Below, piece after piece: positions 12,134-52,027 of a stretch of DNA of 64,000 nt; the stretch's first letter is position 1; each line of letters starts with the position of its first letter. Source of the DNA: Nevskia sp. (GTDB lineage Bacteria > Pseudomonadota > Gammaproteobacteria > Nevskiales > Nevskiaceae); NCBI GenBank assembly GCA_035651715.1, contig DASRFD010000150.1, positions 128,860 through 192,859 on the forward strand. Reading direction: 5' to 3'. The notes under the pieces were generated by a model. That model ran no database searches and had not been told where the DNA came from. It was given only the letters and a program-made list of their open reading frames with translations. A program made the translations under genes and the position numbers.

Positions 12134-12424
12134 CTAAACGCAAACCGGGTCGAAGTATTCGACCTCGACCCGGTCCTGCAATTCGCGCATGCGCTCGATG
12201 TACTGCGCCACCGCCGGCGAGTGCTGGTGCTGCGACAGCGCCGCGGGATCCGCGTACTGTTCGTGGATGACGTAAGAACCGGGGTGCAGGCGCGAGCGCA
12301 GCAGCGAGTAGATCAGGCATCCCGGCTCGTGCCGGCGCAATTCCTCGCGCAGGCCGCCGAAGAGCTGCTCGAACCGCTGCTCCTCGCCGGGCCTGACCCT
12401 GACGATCCTGAGGTTTCCGACCAT
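12134..12424 (-). CDS. Antibiotic-biosynthesis-monooxygenase (ABM) family protein
   Basis: Internal ATG with SD GGAGGAGG. MVGNLRIVRVRPGEEQRFEQLFGGLREELRRHEPGCLIYSLLRS... ferredoxin-like ABM fold pattern. 96 aa. Confidence 0.7.
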   Translation of the reverse strand: MVGNLRIVRVRPGEEQRFEQLFGGLREELRRHEPGCLIYSLLRSRLHPGSYVIHEQYADPAALSQHQHSPAVAQYIERMRELQDRVEVEYFDPVCV

Positions 12425-15234: not shown

Positions 15235-16164
15235 TCAGCTAGACGGCGCCGAGCTCACCAGATTCCTTCCCCGGCGCTTGGCCTCGTACATCGTTGCGTC
15301 CAGCCGCCGCATGAATGAAGCCGCCGTGTCCGTGGAGTGGAACTGGGCGACACCGAAGCTCGCCGTGACTGGCTGGCCCATTCCCGGGAAGGAACTTTGC
15401 ATCAAGGCCACGCGGACGAGCTCGGCCTTCGCCTCCGCGAGGTCGAGCCGCGACTGCGGCAGCAGAATCACAAACTCCTCACCCCCGATCCGGCAAACGC
15501 AGTCGGTCGGCCGTGTCTGGGAACGCAGAAGCGCACCGAATGCCGCGAGCACCGCGTCTCCCGCCATGTGGCCATGGCGATCGTTGATCTCCTTGAAGTG
15601 ATCCAGGTCGCACATGATGGCGCTCAGCTCGCCGCCCGTCCTTTTGACCCTGCTGATCTCCGCGGCCAACGCCTGGTCGAAGCGGCGGCGGTTGCCGGTG
15701 CCCGTGAGAGGATCGGTCAGGGACGACTCCACGATCAGGGCCTCGCGCTGGCGGAGCGCGATGTTCGCTCGCGCCAGTTCCTGCTGCGCCTGGTGGAGCT
15801 CCTCGTTCAGCTGCAGCACCATGCCGTTGAGGCGCTCCAGTTCATCGATGCCGTACTCGGCCAGCAGGCGGATGCCATCGGGAGCTTTCCACACGTGCCC
15901 GTGCAGGGTGCGCAGCGGTCCAGCGTACGTTCCGATGGTCAGCAAGCCGCGATAGCCATCGCCGACCCGGTGCACCGTTTGCAGCAGACTCGCAAAAGAG
16001 GGCTGCACGAATATGGTGGCCACACGCTGCCCCGCCGCTGCGGCGGGCGTGCCCGGCAAGAGCCTCAGGAAGCCTGCATTGGCTTTCTCCAGCGTGCCAT
16101 CCTGGCTGATGACGGCGGCGACCACCGTCTGCAGGCGGTCCAGTTCGACGGCGAAGGAGTTCAC
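15235..16164 (-). CDS. Diguanylate cyclase (GGDEF domain, GGEEF active site) with N-terminal PAS-like sensor region
   Basis: RIGGEEFVILLP and DPLTGTGNRRRFD motifs. Candidate GTG start at 16164 overlaps the upstream gene's TGA (GTGA). The track ORF extends to a TTG at 16227. Confidence 0.8.
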   Translation of the reverse strand: MNSFAVELDRLQTVVAAVISQDGTLEKANAGFLRLLPGTPAAAAGQRVATIFVQPSFASLLQTVHRVGDGYRGLLTIGTYAGPLRTLHGHVWKAPDGIRLLAEYGIDELERLNGMVLQLNEELHQAQQELARANIALRQREALIVESSLTDPLTGTGNRRRFDQALAAEISRVKRTGGELSAIMCDLDHFKEINDRHGHMAGDAVLAAFGALLRSQTRPTDCVCRIGGEEFVILLPQSRLDLAEAKAELVRVALMQSSFPGMGQPVTASFGVAQFHSTDTAASFMRRLDATMYEAKRRGRNLVSSAPSS

Positions 16165-17228
16165 GCGGCCGCGGGCCTGCCGAGGAGGCTTTCGGCTACC
16201 TCGACCGCGTGCGCCGCGTCGGTACAAAAGCCGTCGGCCACGGACGCGGACACCAATCTTTCCAGTTGCCTGACGGCCAGGCCGCCGACGATCACCCGCG
16301 GACGGGGGCCTGCGCTCAACCGCTTCATGAGATCGCGCACATGCACCAGTTGCTGCGGAAAGCTGAGCGACAGGCCGAGCAAGTCCGGGCTATGCCGGGC
16401 GACCTGGGCCAGTATCGCCGGTGTCGGAACGTTGGGACCGAGGTTCTGCACTGTCCAGCCCGCCAGCTGAAGACTGTCCGCCACCATCTGCAGACCGATC
16501 GCATGGTGGTTGCCATCGACGCAGGCGAGCAAGGCCCGGTGTCCGTTCGATGCCGGCAGGCGCACCTTCAGCAGCGCTTCGCTCATCATCGATTGAACAA
16601 TGGCGCTGGCAAGATGTTCCTGCGCCACCGACACCTGATTGCGCTGCCATCGCAGGCCGATGCGGTACAAGGCCGGCTGGATGAGGCGCTGTTCGGCTTC
16701 GACCAGGCTCGAACGGGCCACGCATTCGGTCAGCAGCTTCCTCGCCGCCGTGCGATCTCCCGCCAGGATGGCGTCCTCAAACTGCGAGGACTCGGGCCAG
16801 GCATCGGCCGCCACGGCCCAGGCGGGAACCTCGGAGGTTTCGGTCTGCTCGGCGCGGGCCAAAGCCTTGCGCAACGCCGCCAGGACCGCGGCGGCATCCG
16901 CCTGCGGCAGGCGAGCGGAGAAAAACGGGGCCAGCTGTTCCATCGCCGAGCGAAGCTGCGCCGGTTGGACGCCGCGGGCCTGATGCACCCCCGCCAGCCA
17001 TTTCAATCCGTCAACGAGCGGCTGGAGGGCGCCGAACTGCAGCACCGCGCGCAGCAATTCGAGCATCAGCGCGAAATCGCTGCTGCAAGCAGCCGGTCCG
17101 GATTCACCCGGATAAGCTTCGGCGCCGGTCGCGTAGAAGGCATCGGCCGCAGTCCTGGCGGCTTCCATCTCCAGCTCCAGCAGCCGGTCGATGGATTCCG
17201 GGTCCAGAACCGGAGTGTCGATGTTCAT
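16161..17228 (-). CDS. Stand-alone cobalamin(B12)-binding domain protein (B12-binding_2 helical bundle + Rossmann B12 domain; AerR/PpaA-like, no DNA-binding domain)
   Basis: Internal ATG MNIDTPVLDPESIDRLLELEM... B12 motifs VDGNHHAIG (NxHxxG variant with His ligand), LGLSLSF (SxL) and VIVGG (GG). Confidence 0.75.
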   Translation of the reverse strand: MNIDTPVLDPESIDRLLELEMEAARTAADAFYATGAEAYPGESGPAACSSDFALMLELLRAVLQFGALQPLVDGLKWLAGVHQARGVQPAQLRSAMEQLAPFFSARLPQADAAAVLAALRKALARAEQTETSEVPAWAVAADAWPESSQFEDAILAGDRTAARKLLTECVARSSLVEAEQRLIQPALYRIGLRWQRNQVSVAQEHLASAIVQSMMSEALLKVRLPASNGHRALLACVDGNHHAIGLQMVADSLQLAGWTVQNLGPNVPTPAILAQVARHSPDLLGLSLSFPQQLVHVRDLMKRLSAGPRPRVIVGGLAVRQLERLVSASVADGFCTDAAHAVEVAESLLGRPAAA

Positions 17229-17350
17229 GTGTGGGCCAAGTGCTCTTTCCGGCCACGCTAGCAAGGGAGCCGCTGAGGGACCAATGATGCAGATCAAGCG
17301 GCAAGGGCCGGCGTCCGGGAATTTCGCGGCGCCGGGAGTGTCCAAGCTTG

Positions 17351-17370
17351 GCAATATCCAATAATATCCA
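17351..17370 (+). promoter_or_regulatory. Direct repeat AATATCCA-N2-AATATCCA in divergent promoter region
   Basis: gcAATATCCAatAATATCCAga lies between the B12-binding gene start (17228, minus) and the CheB/CheR-HK start (17429, plus). Candidate operator. Confidence 0.25.
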
Positions 17371-17428
17371 GACCTTACGCACTCCAATCCCCGGCCCGTC
17401 ATTATCCAGGGCGAGAAAGCGATGGCTA

Positions 17429-20400
17429 ATGGCTGACCAGGATAACGAAGAAAGCAAGCCCATCGACTGCCTGAATATCGCAGTCCTCGGCGCCTCCGCC
17501 GGCGGCGTGGAAGCGCTCTCGACGGTGGTTGCGCACCTGCCGGACGAGCCGGCGTTCGCGGCCGTGGTGCTGATGCACCTGGCAGCGGACCAGGAAAGCC
17601 AGCTGCCGGAGATTCTCGCCAAGCAGGCGCGCTGGCCGGTGGAGCCGATTGCCGGCGGGACCCCGCTGCAGCACGGGCGCATCTACGTATTGACCCCGGG
17701 CACGGTGGCCAGCGTGCGTGATCGGCGGCTGCTGACCATGCCCAGGGCCGAGGGCCTGAGCCGGCCGATCGACGAGTTCATGACCGCCGCGGCGGACGAG
17801 GAGGAGGTGCGCGCCGCGGCGGTGGTGCTCTCCGGCATGGGGAGCGACGGCGTCGCCGGCGCGCGCGAGATCAAGGCGGGCGGCGGACGGGTCATCGCGC
17901 AGGAGCCGCGCAGCGCCCTGCATGGCGGTATGCCCGAGGCGGTGATCGCCGAGCAGCTGGCTGACGAGGTGCTGGCGCCCGAGGCCGTCGGTCCCGCTCT
18001 GCTGCGCTATTTCCAGTCGCGCAGCGAGCGCTCGGAAGTGAATGACGCGCATGTCGAGGAGGCCCTGGCGCAGATCAAGCGCGGCCTCGGGGTCAACCTG
18101 GGCTACTACAAGGCGGTGAACGTGCGCCGGCGCCTGGCGCGCCGCGCCTTCCTGCAGGCCGGAGGCGACCTCGGCGCCTACATGCAGCGGCTGGAGGACG
18201 ACCGCGAGGAGCTGAAGGCGCTGCGCGACGACCTGCTCATCGGCGTGACCGGCTTCTTCCGCGACCCGGAGTTTGTCGGCGCGCTGGAACAGCATGTCCT
18301 TCCGGAGCTGCTGCAGGGCAGCCAGGAGATCCGCATCTGGGTGCCGGCCTGCTCCACCGGCGAGGAGGCGTATTCGATTGCGCTGCTGCTGCATCACACG
18401 CTGGAGAGCGCCGGACTGCATCGAAAGATGCAGGTGTTCGGCAGCGACATCAATGACGAGGCGATCCGCAAGGCCCGCATCGGACGCTATGACGCGGCGG
18501 CCGTGGCATCGATCCCGCCGATGCTGCGCGAGCGCTACCTGGTGGCGGAGGAAGGTGCCTGGCGCATCGCCAAGCCGGTGCGCGAGACCTGCGTTTTCGC
18601 GACGCATAACCTGTTCGTCAACGCGCCGTTCTCCAACGTCGACCTGGTTTCGGCGCGCAACCTGCTCATCTATGTGCGCAAGGCGGCCAAGCGCCATGCC
18701 TTCGAGGTGTTTTCCTACGCCCTGCGGCGCAACGGCAAGCTGCTGCTGGCGCCTTCGGAGGCGGCCGACCCGGAGCTTTTCGAAGACTACCAGCCGCAGC
18801 TGAGCCTGTACCGGCGGCGCCAGGTCACGCGGCCGCCCCTGCGCGGCTTCATTTTTGGCGAATCGGCTCCGACGGCAGTGACCGAGCGCCCGGAGGTGGC
18901 GGGGCCCTCGCTGGAAAGCGTCGTCGACCGGCTGGCCCTGGCGCGCTTCGAGCCCCCGGGCTTCGTCGTCGACACGCACGGCAGCGTGGTGCAGTTCCGC
19001 GGCGACACGGCGCACCTGCTCCAGCCCACCCGTGGAGACGCGGCGCTGTCGCTGGCCAAGCTGATCCATCCCGACCTGCAGGTGGATGTCCGCGCCGCCC
19101 TGATGGAGGCGGTGCACAGCAAGCTGACGGTGCGGCGCGAGCGGCTGCGTTTCGGCGACCGCCTGTGCACGCTTGAAGTGGTGCCGGTGCCGTCCGGCGG
19201 CGCGGAACGCTATTTCCTGGTCTCGGTCGACGACCGCGGCAGCACGCCGCCGCTGCCGGCGCCCGGTTCGCCCGACGGCCGCGCCGAGGACCTGGAGCGC
19301 TACGTGCGCGTGCTGGGAGACGAGCTGGAGCAGACCCGCGCCCAGCTCAAGCAGGTGGTGGTGGACTACGACGCCACCGGCGAGGAGCTGCGCACCGCCA
19401 ACGAGGAAGTGCTGTCGGCCAACGAGGAACTGCAAAGCTCCAACGAGGAGCTGCAAGAGGCCAAGCGGAGCCTGGAGGGGGCCAACGCCGACCTCGGCAC
19501 GTTGAACCAGCGCCTGCAGGAACGCAACGAGCAGCTCAGCGCGCTGAACGACGATTTGGGCAACCTGATCCGCGGCATCCCGGTACCGGTGCTGATGCTG
19601 GACCGCGACCGCTGCGTGCGCTACTTCACGCCGGCGGCGGCGGAGCTGCTGGGCCTGCACGAGTCCGACCTCGGGCGGCCGCTGCGCATCGACCCGGTGT
19701 TTGCGGACGGCGCGCTGGATGCGCCGCTGGACGAAGCGCTCGGGGAGCTGCGCCCGGTGCAGCGCGAAATCCAGGACGCCAACGGCCGCTGGTACGCGTT
19801 GCACGTGCGCGCCTACCAGACCAGCGAGAACCGCGTCGAGGGCGCGGTCTGCGCGCTGCAGGACATCCACGGCCTGAAGGTGTCGCTGGAAGCGGCCAAC
19901 AGCGCACGGGCCGAGGCCGAGCGGGCCAACGCGGCGAAGAACGATTTCCTCGCCCTGGTCAGCCACGAGCTGCGCTCGCCGCTGAACGTGATCGCCAACT
20001 GGGTGCAGCTGCTGCTGATCCTGAAGAAGGACCAGGGCGCGGACGAACGCGAGCGCAGGGGCCTGGACACCATCCACCGCCAATGCCAAAACCTGGCGCG
20101 GCTGATCGACGAACTGCTCGACATCTCGCGCATCACCAGCGGCCGCCTGGTGCTGGACCTGCGGCCGGTGGACCTGGCGGCGGTGGTGCGCGCCACGGTG
20201 GAGGCGCTGGAGCCGGGCGCCGACAGCAGGAAGGTGCGCCTGACCACGGCCGGGCTCAGCGACGAGTTGCGCATGGCCGGCGACACGCGCCGGCTGCAGC
20301 AGATCGTCGGCAACATCCTCGGGAATGCGCTGAAGTTCACGCCGGAAGGCGGCAAGGTGGAGGTGTCGCTGGCGCGCATCGGCACCGTGGCGGAACTGGC

Positions 20401-21076
20401 GGTCAGCGACACGGGCATCGGCATCGGCGCGGAGGAACTGCCGCGCGTCTTCGACCGCTTCATGCAGGCCGACATTTCCAAGGCGCGCAAGTACGGCGGC
20501 ATGGGGCTGGGGCTGTCGATCGTGCGCAGCCTGGTCGAGGCCCACGGCGGCAGTGTGGCGGCATCGAGCGAGGGGCCCGGCAAGGGGGCGCGCTTCCTGG
20601 TGCGGCTGCCGCTGTCGCCCGGCATGCACATCGACAACGGGCCTCCCGCCGGCCCCGGCGCGCCGGCGGCGCTTTCGCTGAAGGGCGTCCGCCTGCTCGT
20701 CGTCGACGACGAGCCGGTCGGGCGGGAGGCGATCACCCAGGTGCTGCTGGCGCTCGGAGCCGAGGTGCAGGCGGCGGGCAGCGGAATAGAGGCGCTGGAC
20801 CTGCTCGAGCGCGAGCGCTTCGACGCGCTGATCTCGGACGTTGCCATGCCCGAGATGACCGGGTACGAGCTGATGCAGACCATCCGCAAGAACGAGGGGG
20901 CACGTGCGGCGCCCGGAATTTACGCCGTGGCGCTGACCGGCTTTGCCTCGATCGGCGAACGCGACGAGGCGCTGGCGGCGGGATTCGACGCCCACTTCGC
21001 CAAGCCGCCGAACATCGAGGAAATCGCGGCGCGAATCGCCGCGGCCGCCGCGGCGAGGGCCTTGCGGTCGTCCTGA
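17429..21076 (+). CDS. Hybrid chemotaxis methylesterase/methyltransferase sensor kinase: CheB-like + CheR-like + PAS + coiled coil + HisKA/HATPase + receiver
   Basis: Domain order read from motifs. CheB LNIAVLGASAGGVEAL. CheR GFFRDPEFV...VPACSTGEEAYSIALLL. Heptad-rich EELQSSNEELQ region. HisKA HELRSPLNVI. HATPase DTGIGIGAEELPRVFDRF and GGMGLGLSIV. REC LLVVDDEPV...DVAMPEMTG. Confidence 0.85.
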   Translation: MADQDNEESKPIDCLNIAVLGASAGGVEALSTVVAHLPDEPAFAAVVLMHLAADQESQLPEILAKQARWPVEPIAGGTPLQHGRIYVLTPGTVASVRDRRLLTMPRAEGLSRPIDEFMTAAADEEEVRAAAVVLSGMGSDGVAGAREIKAGGGRVIAQEPRSALHGGMPEAVIAEQLADEVLAPEAVGPALLRYFQSRSERSEVNDAHVEEALAQIKRGLGVNLGYYKAVNVRRRLARRAFLQAGGDLGAYMQRLEDDREELKALRDDLLIGVTGFFRDPEFVGALEQHVLPELLQGSQEIRIWVPACSTGEEAYSIALLLHHTLESAGLHRKMQVFGSDINDEAIRKARIGRYDAAAVASIPPMLRERYLVAEEGAWRIAKPVRETCVFATHNLFVNAPFSNVDLVSARNLLIYVRKAAKRHAFEVFSYALRRNGKLLLAPSEAADPELFEDYQPQLSLYRRRQVTRPPLRGFIFGESAPTAVTERPEVAGPSLESVVDRLALARFEPPGFVVDTHGSVVQFRGDTAHLLQPTRGDAALSLAKLIHPDLQVDVRAALMEAVHSKLTVRRERLRFGDRLCTLEVVPVPSGGAERYFLVSVDDRGSTPPLPAPGSPDGRAEDLERYVRVLGDELEQTRAQLKQVVVDYDATGEELRTANEEVLSANEELQSSNEELQEAKRSLEGANADLGTLNQRLQERNEQLSALNDDLGNLIRGIPVPVLMLDRDRCVRYFTPAAAELLGLHESDLGRPLRIDPVFADGALDAPLDEALGELRPVQREIQDANGRWYALHVRAYQTSENRVEGAVCALQDIHGLKVSLEAANSARAEAERANAAKNDFLALVSHELRSPLNVIANWVQLLLILKKDQGADERERRGLDTIHRQCQNLARLIDELLDISRITSGRLVLDLRPVDLAAVVRATVEALEPGADSRKVRLTTAGLSDELRMAGDTRRLQQIVGNILGNALKFTPEGGKVEVSLARIGTVAELAVSDTGIGIGAEELPRVFDRFMQADISKARKYGGMGLGLSIVRSLVEAHGGSVAASSEGPGKGARFLVRLPLSPGMHIDNGPPAGPGAPAALSLKGVRLLVVDDEPVGREAITQVLLALGAEVQAAGSGIEALDLLERERFDALISDVAMPEMTGYELMQTIRKNEGARAAPGIYAVALTGFASIGERDEALAAGFDAHFAKPPNIEEIAARIAAAAAARALRSS

Positions 21077-21192: not shown

Positions 21193-21268
21193 TGGTGGCC
21201 GGGGACGGAATCGAACCGCCGACACGGGGATTTTCAGTCCCCTGCTCTACCAACTGAGCTACCCGGCC
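21193..21268 (-). tRNA. tRNA-Phe (anticodon GAA)
   Basis: Reverse complement GGCCGGGTAGCTCAGTTGGTAGAGCAGGGGACTGAAAATCCCCGTGTCGGCGGTTCGATTCCGTCCCCGGCCACCA. 7-bp acceptor stem, GAA in a 7-nt anticodon loop, TTCGATT T-loop, encoded CCA. Confidence 0.9.
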
Positions 21269-49789: not shown

Positions 49790-51043
49790 GTGACCTCGAG
49801 CCATCCGGAGGTGCCGCCGGCCGTGGTGGCCGCCGATCTGCGCGCGCGCTACCGCCAGGTGCGGGCGCAGACCGAGGCCTTGGCCGAGCCGCTGTCGGCG
49901 GAGGACCAGGTGCTGCAGTCGATGCCGGACGCCAGCCCCGCCAAGTGGCACCGCGCCCATACCAGCTGGTTCTTCGAAACCTTCCTGCTGCAGCCGCAGC
50001 TGGCCGGCTACAAGCCGTTCCACCCGGGCTACGGCTACCTGTTCAATTCCTATTACGAGGCGATCGGCGAGCGCGTGGCGCGGCCGCGCCGCGGCATGCT
50101 CAGCCGGCCGTCCTGCGACGAGATCGCGGCTTACCGCGCGCATGTCGACCAGGCGATGCTGCAATTGCTGGAGCGCGGCACGCCCGCCGTGCAGGCCCTG
50201 GTCGAGCTGGGCCTGAACCACGAGCAGCAGCACCAGGAGCTGCTGCTCACCGACATCAAGCACGCCTTTTCCGGCAATCCGCTGCGGCCGGCCTACGCCG
50301 CCGCGCCGGAAGCCGGGCCGGGCGCCGCGCCGCCGCTGCGCTGGCACGACATCCCGCGCGGCATCCATGCGGTCGGCCACCGCGGCACCGGCTTTCATTT
50401 CGACAACGAGGGCCCGGCGCACGAAGTGCTGTTGTCCGGCTGCCGCATCGCCAGCCGCCCGGTGAGCGTCGGCGAATACCTGGAGTTCGTCGCCGACGGC
50501 GGCTACCGCCGCGCCGGGCTATGGCTGTCCGACGGCTGGGCGAAGGTGTGCGAGGAAGGCTGGAACGCGCCGCTGTACTGGGAGCGCACCGGCCACGACT
50601 GGACCTGCTACACCCTGCACGGCCCGCGTCCGCTGTGCGCCGACGAGCCGGTGTGCCACGTCAGCTACTACGAGGCCTGCGCCTACGCCGCCTGGGCCGG
50701 CAAGCGCCTGCCGACCGAGCAGGAATGGGAAGTGGCGGCGCGGCAGGCCGGCGGCGATTTCACCTCCGCCGCGGCGGTGCGCCCGCATCCGGGCGCGCTG
50801 CGCGAAGGCTTCACTCAGGAGGTGTGGGAGTGGACCGGCAGCGCCTACCTGCCCTATCCCGGCTTCCGCCCCGCCGCCGGCGCGGTGGGCGAGTACAACG
50901 GCAAGTTCATGGTCAACCAGATGGTGCTGCGCGGCCGCTCCTGCGCCACGCCGCCGGGGCACTCGCGGCCCAGCTACCGCAATTTCTTCGGGCCGGCCGC
51001 GCGCTGGCAGTTCAGCGGGTTCCGGCTCGCGGAGGACGCATAA
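49790..51043 (+). CDS. egtB: Ergothioneine biosynthesis protein EgtB (hercynine oxygenase; DinB_2 + FGE-sulfatase fold)
   Basis: GTG start. N-terminal DinB-like region ([11 protein letters not shown]). C-terminal FGE-like region ([14 protein letters not shown]). Directly followed by egtD. Confidence 0.85.
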
Positions 51044-52027
51044 ATGGTCTCGGCACTCCCGCTGCAAGGCGTGCAGCACCTGCACGATCTCGAACCCACC
51101 CGCGGCGAGTTCGAGCAGGCGGTGTTCGCCGGCCTGGCGCAGCCGCGCAAGAGCCTGCCCTGCAAGTTCTTCTACGACGCCGCCGGCTCGGCGCTGTTCG
51201 ACCGCATCTGCGAGCTGCCGGAGTACTACCCGACCCGCACCGAGCTGGGCATCCTGCGCCGGCGCGCCGGCGAGATGGCGGCCCTGCTCGGCGCGGGCGC
51301 CGGCGTGGTCGAGTTCGGCTCCGGCTCGGCCGCCAAGGTCGGCCTGATCCTGGAGCAGCTGGAACAGCCCAGCCTGTACGTGCCGGTGGACATCTCGCGC
51401 GGCCACCTGCTGGCCGGCGCCGCGGCGCTGGCCCGCGCCTTCCCCGGCCTGCGCGTGGCGCCGGTGTGCGCCGACTACACCCAGGCGTTCGAGCTGCCGG
51501 CGGCGGCGCGCACGCTGCCGGGACGGCTGGCGGGCTTCTTCCCCGGCTCCACCATCGGCAACTTCACCCCGGGCGAGGCGCGCCGCTTCCTGGCCCAGAC
51601 CCGCCGCACGCTCGGCCGCGGCGCGGTGATGATCGTCGGCGTGGACCTGCGCAAGGACGCCGCCGTCCTGGAGGCCGCCTACGACGACGCGGCCGGCGTC
51701 ACCGCCGCCTTCAACCTCAACCTGCTCCAGCGCATCAACCGCGAGCTGGGCGGCAGCTTCGATCTCTCCGCCTTCCGCCATTGCGCGCGCTGGAACGCCG
51801 CCGAAAGCCGCGTCGAGATGCACCTGCTGAGCCGCCGCGCGCAGCGCGTGCGCATCGGCGCGCGGCACTTCGACTTCGCCGAGGGCGAGAGCATCCACAC
51901 CGAGAATTCGTACAAGTACACGCCGGAGGGCTTCCGCATGCTGGCCAGCGCCGCCGGCTACGAGCCGCTGGAGTGCTGGACCGATCCGCACCAGCTGTTC
52001 AGCGTGCACGCGCTGCAGGCGCGCTGA
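51044..52027 (+). CDS. egtD: L-histidine N-alpha-methyltransferase EgtD
   Basis: ATG abuts the egtB TAA. PCKFFYDAAGSALFDRICELPEYYPTRTE and VEFGSGSAAK are characteristic of EgtD. Confidence 0.85.
   Translation: MVSALPLQGVQHLHDLEPTRGEFEQAVFAGLAQPRKSLPCKFFYDAAGSALFDRICELPEYYPTRTELGILRRRAGEMAALLGAGAGVVEFGSGSAAKVGLILEQLEQPSLYVPVDISRGHLLAGAAALARAFPGLRVAPVCADYTQAFELPAAARTLPGRLAGFFPGSTIGNFTPGEARRFLAQTRRTLGRGAVMIVGVDLRKDAAVLEAAYDDAAGVTAAFNLNLLQRINRELGGSFDLSAFRHCARWNAAESRVEMHLLSRRAQRVRIGARHFDFAEGESIHTENSYKYTPEGFRMLASAAGYEPLECWTDPHQLFSVHALQAR

Follow-up and report, generated by a model that had tools for sequence, protein, structure and literature searches.

Gene arrangement at the locus

The 64,000-nucleotide (nt) stretch of Nevskia sp. 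DNA analyzed here (assembly GCA_035651715.1, contig DASRFD010000150.1, positions 128,860–192,859; hereafter the window) contains, on its reverse strand, two overlapping genes encoding a photocobilin-type photoreceptor and a diguanylate cyclase. The photoreceptor gene (16161..17228) extends from ATG 17228 to TGA 16163–16161 and encodes 355 amino acids (aa) without an output domain, and the cyclase gene (15235..16164) encodes 309 aa comprising a PAS-like N-terminal domain (N-domain), a coiled-coil helix and a GGDEF domain. Direct reading of the junction (GCC GCG TGA ACT) revealed that the start codon GTG 16164–16162 and the stop codon TGA 16163–16161 form a 4-nt GTGA overlap (16161..16164), as an initial annotation based on the letters alone had stated. 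Public gene calls agree: on two public contigs carrying an identical protein, independent calls gave the same 355-aa and 309-aa products with the same 4-nt overlap. The 355-aa protein is 100% identical to an entry annotated "cobalamin-dependent protein [Nevskia sp.]". Given the overlap, the sensor and the cyclase are probably co-translated.

Alternative starts were considered for both genes. The only other in-frame start codons for the cyclase are TTG 16227 and GTG 16125, and its first internal Met is residue 114. GTG 16164 has the best support as the start, since the alignments with homologues open at residue ~4; TTG 16227 was discarded, as the homologues start no more than a few residues away from GTG 16164. 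The downstream Met start that the initial annotation had raised as a way of uncoupling the two genes is thus not favored. A 413-aa reading of the sensor from ATG 17402 was also rejected, as it would overlap the divergent hybrid kinase gene and is contradicted by the homologues and gene callers, which start at the MNIDTP position. Gene coordinates leave 119 bp between the photoreceptor gene and this kinase gene (17229..17347), which we presume to be the promoter region.

Cobalamin domain of the sensor

Pfam searches of the sensor revealed a B12-binding_2 four-helix bundle at aa 149–216 (PF02607, 56 bits; 16581..16784) and a B12-binding Rossmann domain at aa 231–342 (PF02310, 77 bits; 16203..16538), with no helix-turn-helix (HTH) match in either the 355-aa or the 413-aa reading, as the initial annotation had proposed. 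The motifs that it quoted were all present in the translation of the Rossmann domain, namely N240-H-H242-A-I-G245 (NHHAIG), S287-L-S and V-I-V-G315-G316. In addition, a pattern search of the translation identified W194-x9-E204-H205 (16614..16649), the adenosyl-pocket signature of CarH-type adenosylcobalamin (AdoCbl) photoreceptors; this motif was named Wx9EH, and its role described, for light-responsive CarH-type domains (PMC10979010). The residue following the Trp of this signature is Gln in the window protein.

For comparison with relatives, one genome per GTDB species was scanned, which yielded at least 593 loci; the best 80 were analyzed, and 72 were used for residue and overlap comparisons. 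W194, E204, H205, H242, G245, G315 and G316 are kept in all 72 relatives, and S287 in 71. Within the E/D-x-H motif, the invariant His242 is predicted to coordinate cobalt as its lower axial ligand, and the acidic position is occupied by Asn240. The initial annotation had described this Asn as replacing an Asp; the residue is indeed Asn, but it is shared by 71/72 relatives, with Glu at this position in more distant ones, and it is therefore a clade trait rather than a defect. The sensor cobalamin fold superposes on those of the solved photocobilins 8j2y and 8j2w at 1.7–2.2 Å. Photocobilins bind AdoCbl in the base-off/His-on mode and form head-to-tail dimers in the dark (PMC10979010), and by analogy the Nevskia sensor would bind AdoCbl base-off/His-on via His242.

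N-terminal photoglobin domain of the sensor

Residues 1–148 of the sensor gave no Pfam match, and the N-terminal region is conserved in 86 homologues of 216–378 aa. A family profile built from 27 sensor homologues and searched against PDB sequences matched the solved photocobilins 8j2w (E 8e-55, with E 6e-46 for the cobalamin part) and 8j2y (E 2e-45), in two separate domains each. Profile positions 16–109 matched the C-terminal biliverdin-binding globin of SasPcob (8j2w residues 227–319, i-E 4.8e-6) and the globin of AbPcob (8j2y residues 227–315, i-E 2.3e-5), and numerous chains of phycocyanin and allophycocyanin matched as well, at E 3e-5 to 1e-3. The AlphaFold model of the sensor (predicted local distance difference test, pLDDT, 89.3; predicted template-modeling score, pTM, 0.86), which is confident including the inter-domain packing, has six helices at 10–128, then the four-helix bundle and then the Rossmann domain; a Foldseek search with this model covered the B12 half only, the domain order being permuted. 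The domain at aa ~10–128 (16845..17201) is thus a photoglobin, a phycobiliprotein-like globin, as defined by Schneider et al. 2021 (PMC8717448). By the definition of Zhang et al. 2024 (PMC10979010), the whole sensor is a photocobilin, with the globin before the cobalamin domain. The initial description of a stand-alone B12 protein therefore stands insofar as there is no output domain, but it missed the globin.

The C48-S-S-D51 motif (17076..17087) of the putative bilin pocket was located by HMMER alignment to 8j2w, whose chain index is 6 lower than the paper numbering (verified with W61, E71 and H72), and by conservation in relatives. In this alignment, D51 and W77 of the window protein correspond to Asp270 and Trp296, respectively, which contact biliverdin in SasPcob. 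Cys48 falls where phycobiliproteins have the Cys that attaches the bilin and where SasPcob has Thr. Cys48 is kept in 63 and Asp51 in 68 of the 72 relatives, and the pocket motif of the clade is C-R-E-D, compared with CXRD in phycobiliproteins and CXQD in other photoglobins (PMC10151467); the photoglobin family of Schneider et al. likewise has a C..D pocket motif (PMC8717448).

The window globin keeps Cys48, Asp51 and Trp77 but departs from the relatives at four pocket-region positions, which are Ser49 (Arg in the clade), Ser50 (Glu), Met55 (17064–17066; His in 65/72) and Gly74 (17007–17009; Tyr in 70/72). Bilin binding by this protein is doubtful because His55 and Tyr74 are missing. The window globin has also diverged more, relative to its cobalamin domain, than most: the ratio of globin to cobalamin-domain identity was 0.71, the 13th lowest of 72 values, whose median was 0.90. 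The four changes suggest weakened or altered bilin binding, as reported for AbPcob, in which a pocket substitution lowers biliverdin occupancy to about 20% (PMC10979010).

Diguanylate cyclase and its PAS-like N-domain

The catalytic domain of the downstream product (15262..15720) matched Pfam GGDEF at 140 bits over profile positions 2–160 of 161. Motif searches, with codons checked, placed the GGEEF motif at residues 227–231 (15472–15486) and a canonical RxxD I-site, R218-P-T-D221 (15502–15513), five residues before it; R218 and D221 are kept in ≥90% of 59 homologues. Judged by these residues, both the active site and the I-site are predicted to be intact. The AlphaFold model (pLDDT 95.5, from a 59-sequence alignment) consists of a PAS-like sheet, a 43-residue helix (106–148) and the GGDEF domain. 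The GGEEF cyclase named in the initial annotation is borne out by profile and motif, and in the model its N-domain looks PAS-like. No Pfam model covers the N-domain (aa 14–104; 15853..16125), for which PAS_4 and PAS_9 scored 16–17 bits, below their cut-offs; its secondary structure in the model is PAS-like, with strands at 14–20, 24–28, 71–78, 84–94 and 97–104 plus short helices. The long linker helix (aa 106–148; 15721..15849) is a predicted coiled coil, based on the model and on structural matches to DgcB, SiaD and PadC.

Foldseek neighbors of the cyclase model were the PAS-GGDEF-EAL protein PA0861, which matched the whole model, SiaD, DgcB, PadC and a light-activated cyclase of the LOV type. 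In systems of the SiaD, DgcB, PadC and LOV-cyclase type, it is coiled-coil register that determines the productive GGDEF dimer, which agrees with a model where the PAS-like domain is the point at which the sensor acts. As may be the case here, the activity of the coiled-coil GGDEF enzymes in SiaC–SiaD, PadC and LOV-GGDEF is set by a partner (SiaC) or a light module. Their sensor chemistry differs, being a phosphoserine switch, a biliverdin phytochrome and a flavin, respectively, and in PadC and LOV-GGDEF the sensor is fused to the enzyme, unlike the separate sensor of the window.

A search with the N-terminal 150 residues of the cyclase (15715–16164) against 1.84 billion representative proteins returned 305 relatives, including the identical protein. 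Among the best 150 of these, 76 contained GGDEF, 31 HATPase_c and 3 hemerythrin. A word-indexed homologue search with the N-domain missed even the identical protein, and its negatives are untrustworthy for this domain.

Conserved linkage of sensor and PAS-like partner

Analysis of the gene order revealed that in 74 of the 80 loci a gene on the same strand starts within about 350 nt after the end of the sensor match, and that its product shares homology with the N-terminal part of the window cyclase over its first ~145 residues. Different outputs follow this N-domain, with GGDEF at ~47 loci, HisKA/HATPase at ~22, hemerythrin at one and no output at one, the rest being cut by contig ends. Examples of such fusions are a hemerythrin form (L079:6092-7030, in locus and position), a PAS-GGDEF-EAL form counted among the ~47 GGDEF loci (L091:6093-8354) and one with no recognizable output (L046:6083-6739). 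On a neighbor-joining tree of the sensors, the output type switched between GGDEF and kinase at least 11 times. Single-homologue look-ups (Hydrogenophaga and several metagenome contigs) showed a 99-aa ABM gene, the sensor gene and an overlapping or abutting GGDEF gene; a histidine kinase gene takes the downstream place in a branch further removed.

In the reverse direction, a search seeded from the N-domain found a sensor gene immediately upstream in 35 of 36 evaluable metagenome loci; this test covers closer relatives only, since its peptide pattern came from a 15-sequence subset, the 61-sequence alignment being too diverse. An in-frame start codon at −4 ([A/G/T]TGA) was present in 42/72 loci. 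Pairwise distances of sensors and of partner N-domains were correlated (r = 0.81), a value reached by 0 of 999 permutations. Gene linkage of this strength greatly exceeds what chance would give, and the parts that it marks as the constant pair are the cobalamin domain and the PAS-like N-domain. The proposal of the initial annotation that the B12 protein is a light- or cobalamin-sensing partner of a cyclic di-GMP (c-di-GMP) synthase, and not of a transcription factor, is supported by this reciprocal linkage across lineages and by published in-vitro switching of cyclases, both fused and in trans (PMC10979010).

Two variants of the cassette were observed among the relatives. Sensors of ~215 aa that consist of the cobalamin part without a photoglobin occur at L084:4965-5609, L085:2821-3483, L087:4965-5606, L099, L105, L106, L108 and L124. 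Because these cobalamin-only sensors keep the PAS-like GGDEF gene downstream, it appears to be through the cobalamin domain that sensor and partner are linked. At L045:6200-7598 and L067:6068-8348, two tandem partners follow one sensor, the first a PAS-like GGDEF gene and the second having the same N-domain (a kinase in L067), which suggests one photoreceptor serving two effectors.

The neighboring gene on the other side of the sensor, divergent from it, encodes a CheB-CheR-PAS-HisKA-HATPase-REC hybrid kinase (17348–21076, forward strand; Pfam). The initial annotation had placed the switch beside a chemotaxis-type kinase; the kinase is there, but its link to the cassette is weak, with a CheB-CheR kinase within 5 kb in only 4/80 genome loci, three from Accumulibacter (L063, L064 and L067) plus L045. 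The kinase genes lie at 7362-10490 in L063 and 7358-10411 in L064.

Source annotations of the homologues are inconsistent and probably wrong, the names given being "methanogenic corrinoid protein MtbC1" and "MerR family light-induced transcriptional regulator". Homologues so labeled (P0006, P0011, P0021, P0002, P0028 and others) exhibited no HTH, and none reached the cut-offs for corrinoid proteins.

ABM gene of relatives and possible chromophore supply

A 99-aa ABM gene lies directly upstream of the sensor gene in 52/80 genome loci (for example L003:7663-7962, L006:7692-7991 and L009:5705-6004). Its closest solved relatives are TT1380 (E 3e-11) and MhuD, HmoB, IsdI and IsdG (E 2e-6 to 3e-2); since heme-degrading monooxygenases are among them, the operonic ABM protein could plausibly provide the globin with a linear tetrapyrrole. 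Two or more changes from the pocket consensus occurred in 4/49 loci with the ABM gene but in 11/21 without it (Fisher's exact p = 1e-4, uncorrected for phylogeny). That presence of the ABM gene tracks an intact pocket consensus suggests that the ABM protein makes the tetrapyrrole ligand of the globin.

A profile of the relatives' operonic ABM genes detected no such gene in the window, and the window protein, with its four pocket changes, is among the most deviant. The window does contain a 96-aa gene of the ABM family (12134–12424, reverse strand), which gave no match to this profile and was rejected as a counterpart. It lies ~3 kb from the cyclase gene; what separates it from the pair is an MFS transporter gene plus a hydrolase-like gene of 224 aa on the other strand.

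Among about 30 window genes scanned, there was no gene for a heme oxygenase, for making or importing cobalamin, or for a CrtJ/PpsR-type regulator. Elsewhere in the window, a tRNA gene (21196–21268, reverse strand; 71 bits) was the sole RNA family match in Rfam, and two adjoining genes on the forward strand, one EgtB-like with DinB_2 and FGE-sulfatase domains (49790–51043) and one EgtD-like with Methyltransf_33 (51044–52027; 377 bits), look like an ergothioneine biosynthesis pair.

Relation to known cobalamin photoreceptors

The class to which the sensor belongs is already known, having been predicted in 2021 (PMC8717448) and characterized biochemically, including control of a cyclase, in 2024 (PMC10979010). 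Schneider et al. predicted photoglobins before or after B12-binding_2 plus B12-binding domains, in operons with GGDEF proteins, histidine kinases, PAS domains and ABM monooxygenases, with EXI88980.1 as a proteobacterial example (PMC8717448); the globin-first arrangement is listed from database surveys in both papers (PMC8717448, PMC10979010). Beyond the literature found here are the PAS-like receiver shared by several outputs, the reciprocal linkage, and the co-variation of ABM gene and pocket, all of them computational results; the accessible part of PMC8717448 makes no mention of a constant PAS-like partner, near-obligate reciprocal linkage or ABM/pocket co-variation.

The closest characterized system is SasPcob of Saccharothrix syringae (PDB 8J2W/8J2X; PMC10979010), which like the window sensor joins a CarH-type cobalamin domain (Wx9EH and axial His) to a bilin globin without an output. 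Its B12 part superposes on the window sensor at a root-mean-square deviation of about 2 Å, with ~29% identity over the cobalamin domain. In SasPcob, however, the cobalamin domain precedes the globin, whereas the window protein has the reverse order, and Glu-x-His stands in place of Asn-x-His. SasPcob can modulate a diguanylate cyclase in trans in vitro, and STAS/SpoIIE neighbors have been suggested as its natural partners; here, the sensor gene shares its last bases with a cyclase gene. In an Acidimicrobiaceae bacterium, AbDPcob (PDB 8J2Y) ties the same type of sensor to c-di-GMP synthesis, and its globin pocket is likewise degenerate with weak biliverdin binding, as proposed for the window protein. 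Whereas AbDPcob is a single polypeptide in the order cyclase, cobalamin domain and globin, without a PAS-like domain, the window encodes separate proteins, and its enzyme has a dedicated PAS-like N-domain and coiled coil.

CarH/LitR (5C8D, 3WHP) and the cobalamin domain of CtMerR (8JBS) share the fold, the Wx9EH/His signature and light-driven Co–C cleavage. CarH has a MerR HTH and binds DNA, whereas the window sensor has no HTH and its output would be a separate enzyme; identity with CarH/LitR was therefore rejected for want of an N-terminal MerR-type HTH. His132 of CarH, which forms the bis-His light state, is replaced in the window sensor by the Gln after the Trp.

Proposed signaling and alternative explanations

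We consider it roughly two-thirds probable (0.68) that the two overlapping genes form a photosensory operon, composed of a photocobilin-type light sensor and a diguanylate cyclase that is its conserved genomic partner. Cofactor binding, a light response and direct contact between the two proteins would follow by analogy with the characterized photocobilins. These lose the adenosyl group under green light, or under red light when biliverdin is bound; after photolysis the Glu-His helix shifts, and the SasPcob dimer falls apart (PMC10979010). Light raises the cyclase kcat of AbDPcob >10-fold, and isolated photocobilins alter the activity of a separate cyclase domain in vitro in a light- and dose-dependent manner, the sign of this regulation being reversed with cofactor loading (PMC10979010).

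By analogy with SasPcob and AbDPcob, green light would cleave the Co–C bond of the AdoCbl held by the sensor, and, if a bilin is bound, red light may do so as well via the globin-bound bilin. The Wx9EH helix would then shift and the oligomeric state of the sensor change. An altered contact between the sensor and the PAS-like N-domain could shift the register of the coiled coil and thereby change c-di-GMP synthesis, with product inhibition at the RPTD I-site capping the output of the cyclase. Because the sign was reversed with cofactor loading in vitro, the direction of regulation is not predictable. The Nevskia sensor may bind bilin weakly or differently, given its atypical pocket (Met55, Gly74, Ser49 and Ser50) and the absence of an IsdG-like ABM gene, and may act mainly as a green-light AdoCbl sensor like AbPcob.

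A more specific extension of this model, which we hold only tentatively and at slightly less than even odds, is that the ~95-residue PAS-like N-domain is a dedicated receiver for cobalamin photoreceptors. It would dock on the cobalamin domain of the sensor encoded upstream and relay light through the coiled coil to any output, while the ABM protein would supply the tetrapyrrole and lineages that lost the ABM gene, this Nevskia locus among them, would let the pocket decay.

Several observations weigh against a photosensory operon of this kind. At the locus itself, there is no obvious Shine-Dalgarno sequence ahead of GTG 16164, and a consensus scan revealed no sigma-70-like site in the 119-bp intergenic region and no terminator, so that the operon boundaries are drawn from gene orientation only. 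The sensor has Asn at the acidic residue of the E/DxH motif and lacks the His55 and Tyr74 of most relatives. The about 30 genes scanned in the 64-kb window included no heme oxygenase, cob or btu genes, no counterpart of the operonic ABM gene was detected, and an Rfam scan of the window found no cobalamin riboswitch. The mirror-tree correlation and the synteny are explicable by co-inheritance alone and do not by themselves prove contact. Both characterized photocobilins have the cobalamin-then-globin order, and neither has a PAS-like partner; no paper found under "photocobilin" or "photoglobin" reports an experiment on the globin-first clade or on a native two-protein pair, and, according to Schneider et al., none of the photoglobin loci had been studied (PMC8717448).

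Two other readings of the pair deserve some weight, although we regard each as improbable. The B12 protein could report cobalamin availability, or a redox or ligand state, and tune the cyclase in the dark through the bound corrinoid. Many hosts are non-phototrophs of sludge, sediment and groundwater (Accumulibacter, Thiobacillus and Dechloromonas), Asn replaces the acidic residue of DxH, and binding of AdoCbl alone lowers the activity of AbDPcob relative to the apo form in vitro (PMC10979010). However, all 72 relatives have Wx9EH, a signature specific to CarH-type domains that respond to light, and the bilin-type globin and the frequent gene for an ABM protein of the heme-degrading type fit a light antenna better. 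CarH-type receptors are, moreover, common in non-phototrophs. Of the two signals that the initial annotation left side by side, light or B12, the invariant AdoCbl-photoreceptor motif favors light. Alternatively, and with about the same small likelihood, the genes could be merely co-transcribed and their products not touch, the PAS-like domain sensing a signal of its own, such as a small molecule or a photolysis product, and the photoreceptor acting elsewhere, for example on the divergent CheB-CheR kinase. Ligand binding is frequent among PAS domains, conserved gene order by itself is no proof of contact, and a CheB-CheR kinase adjoins the pair in the window and lies within 5 kb of it at L045, L063, L064 and L067; this kinase is absent at most loci, however, whereas the PAS-like domain is the sole constant part of the downstream gene across the GGDEF, histidine kinase, hemerythrin and no-output forms and is found almost only beside the B12 gene (35/36). 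Cobalamin-only variants of the sensor also retain the same partner.

The remaining readings concern the identity of the sensor and are much less probable still. The initial annotation had assigned it to the AerR/PpaA type, that is, a stand-alone cobalamin protein acting as a partner-switching, antirepressor-like factor. AerR/PpaA (PDB 7TE2) shares the two B12 Pfam domains, the lack of a DNA-binding domain and the general logic of a cobalamin sensor regulating a separate protein, but it has no photoglobin, and its partner is the repressor CrtJ/PpsR in photosynthesis gene clusters. The window sensor carries an additional photoglobin domain of 130 residues and the CarH-type Wx9EH, its sequence is far closer to photocobilins and CarH (E 1.7e-4 for AerR 7te2 versus 2.8e-20 for 8j2w and 2.9e-21 for 8jbs), and no CrtJ/PpsR-type repressor or photosynthesis gene was present among the about 30 window genes; the AerR/PpaA assignment was accordingly abandoned as very unlikely. 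Least probable of all is a corrinoid carrier of a methyltransferase system, as the JGI name "MtbC1" of several homologues would imply. The similarity to MtgC, MtbC and MtaC in NCBIfam is weak, at 22–48 bits against cut-offs of 215–450, the neighborhood contains no methyltransferase genes of such a system, the photoreceptor motif is invariant, and the conserved partner is a signaling protein.

Implications

Of all known receptors, photocobilins alone couple the photochemistry of B12 with that of bilins, and the two characterized to date are both actinobacterial and both cobalamin-domain-first. For the stand-alone type, a native sensor/effector pair is now available in the Nevskia locus and in hundreds of related ones. 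Such a pair could reveal by what route a stand-alone photocobilin signals to an enzyme and where on the effector surface the signal arrives. If the PAS-like domain is indeed a dedicated receiver, the pair would be a natural plug-and-play two-protein light switch whose outputs have been exchanged at least 11 times, and a small receiver serving several outputs would be useful for optogenetic design. For annotation, the finding bears on genes that now carry the probably mistaken labels "MerR light-induced regulator" or "MtbC1 corrinoid protein". Because Nevskia is a bacterium of surface films (neuston), light control of attachment would be plausible. More broadly, the pair would tie the sensing of green light, and possibly of red light, to the control of lifestyle by c-di-GMP in non-phototrophic Proteobacteria.

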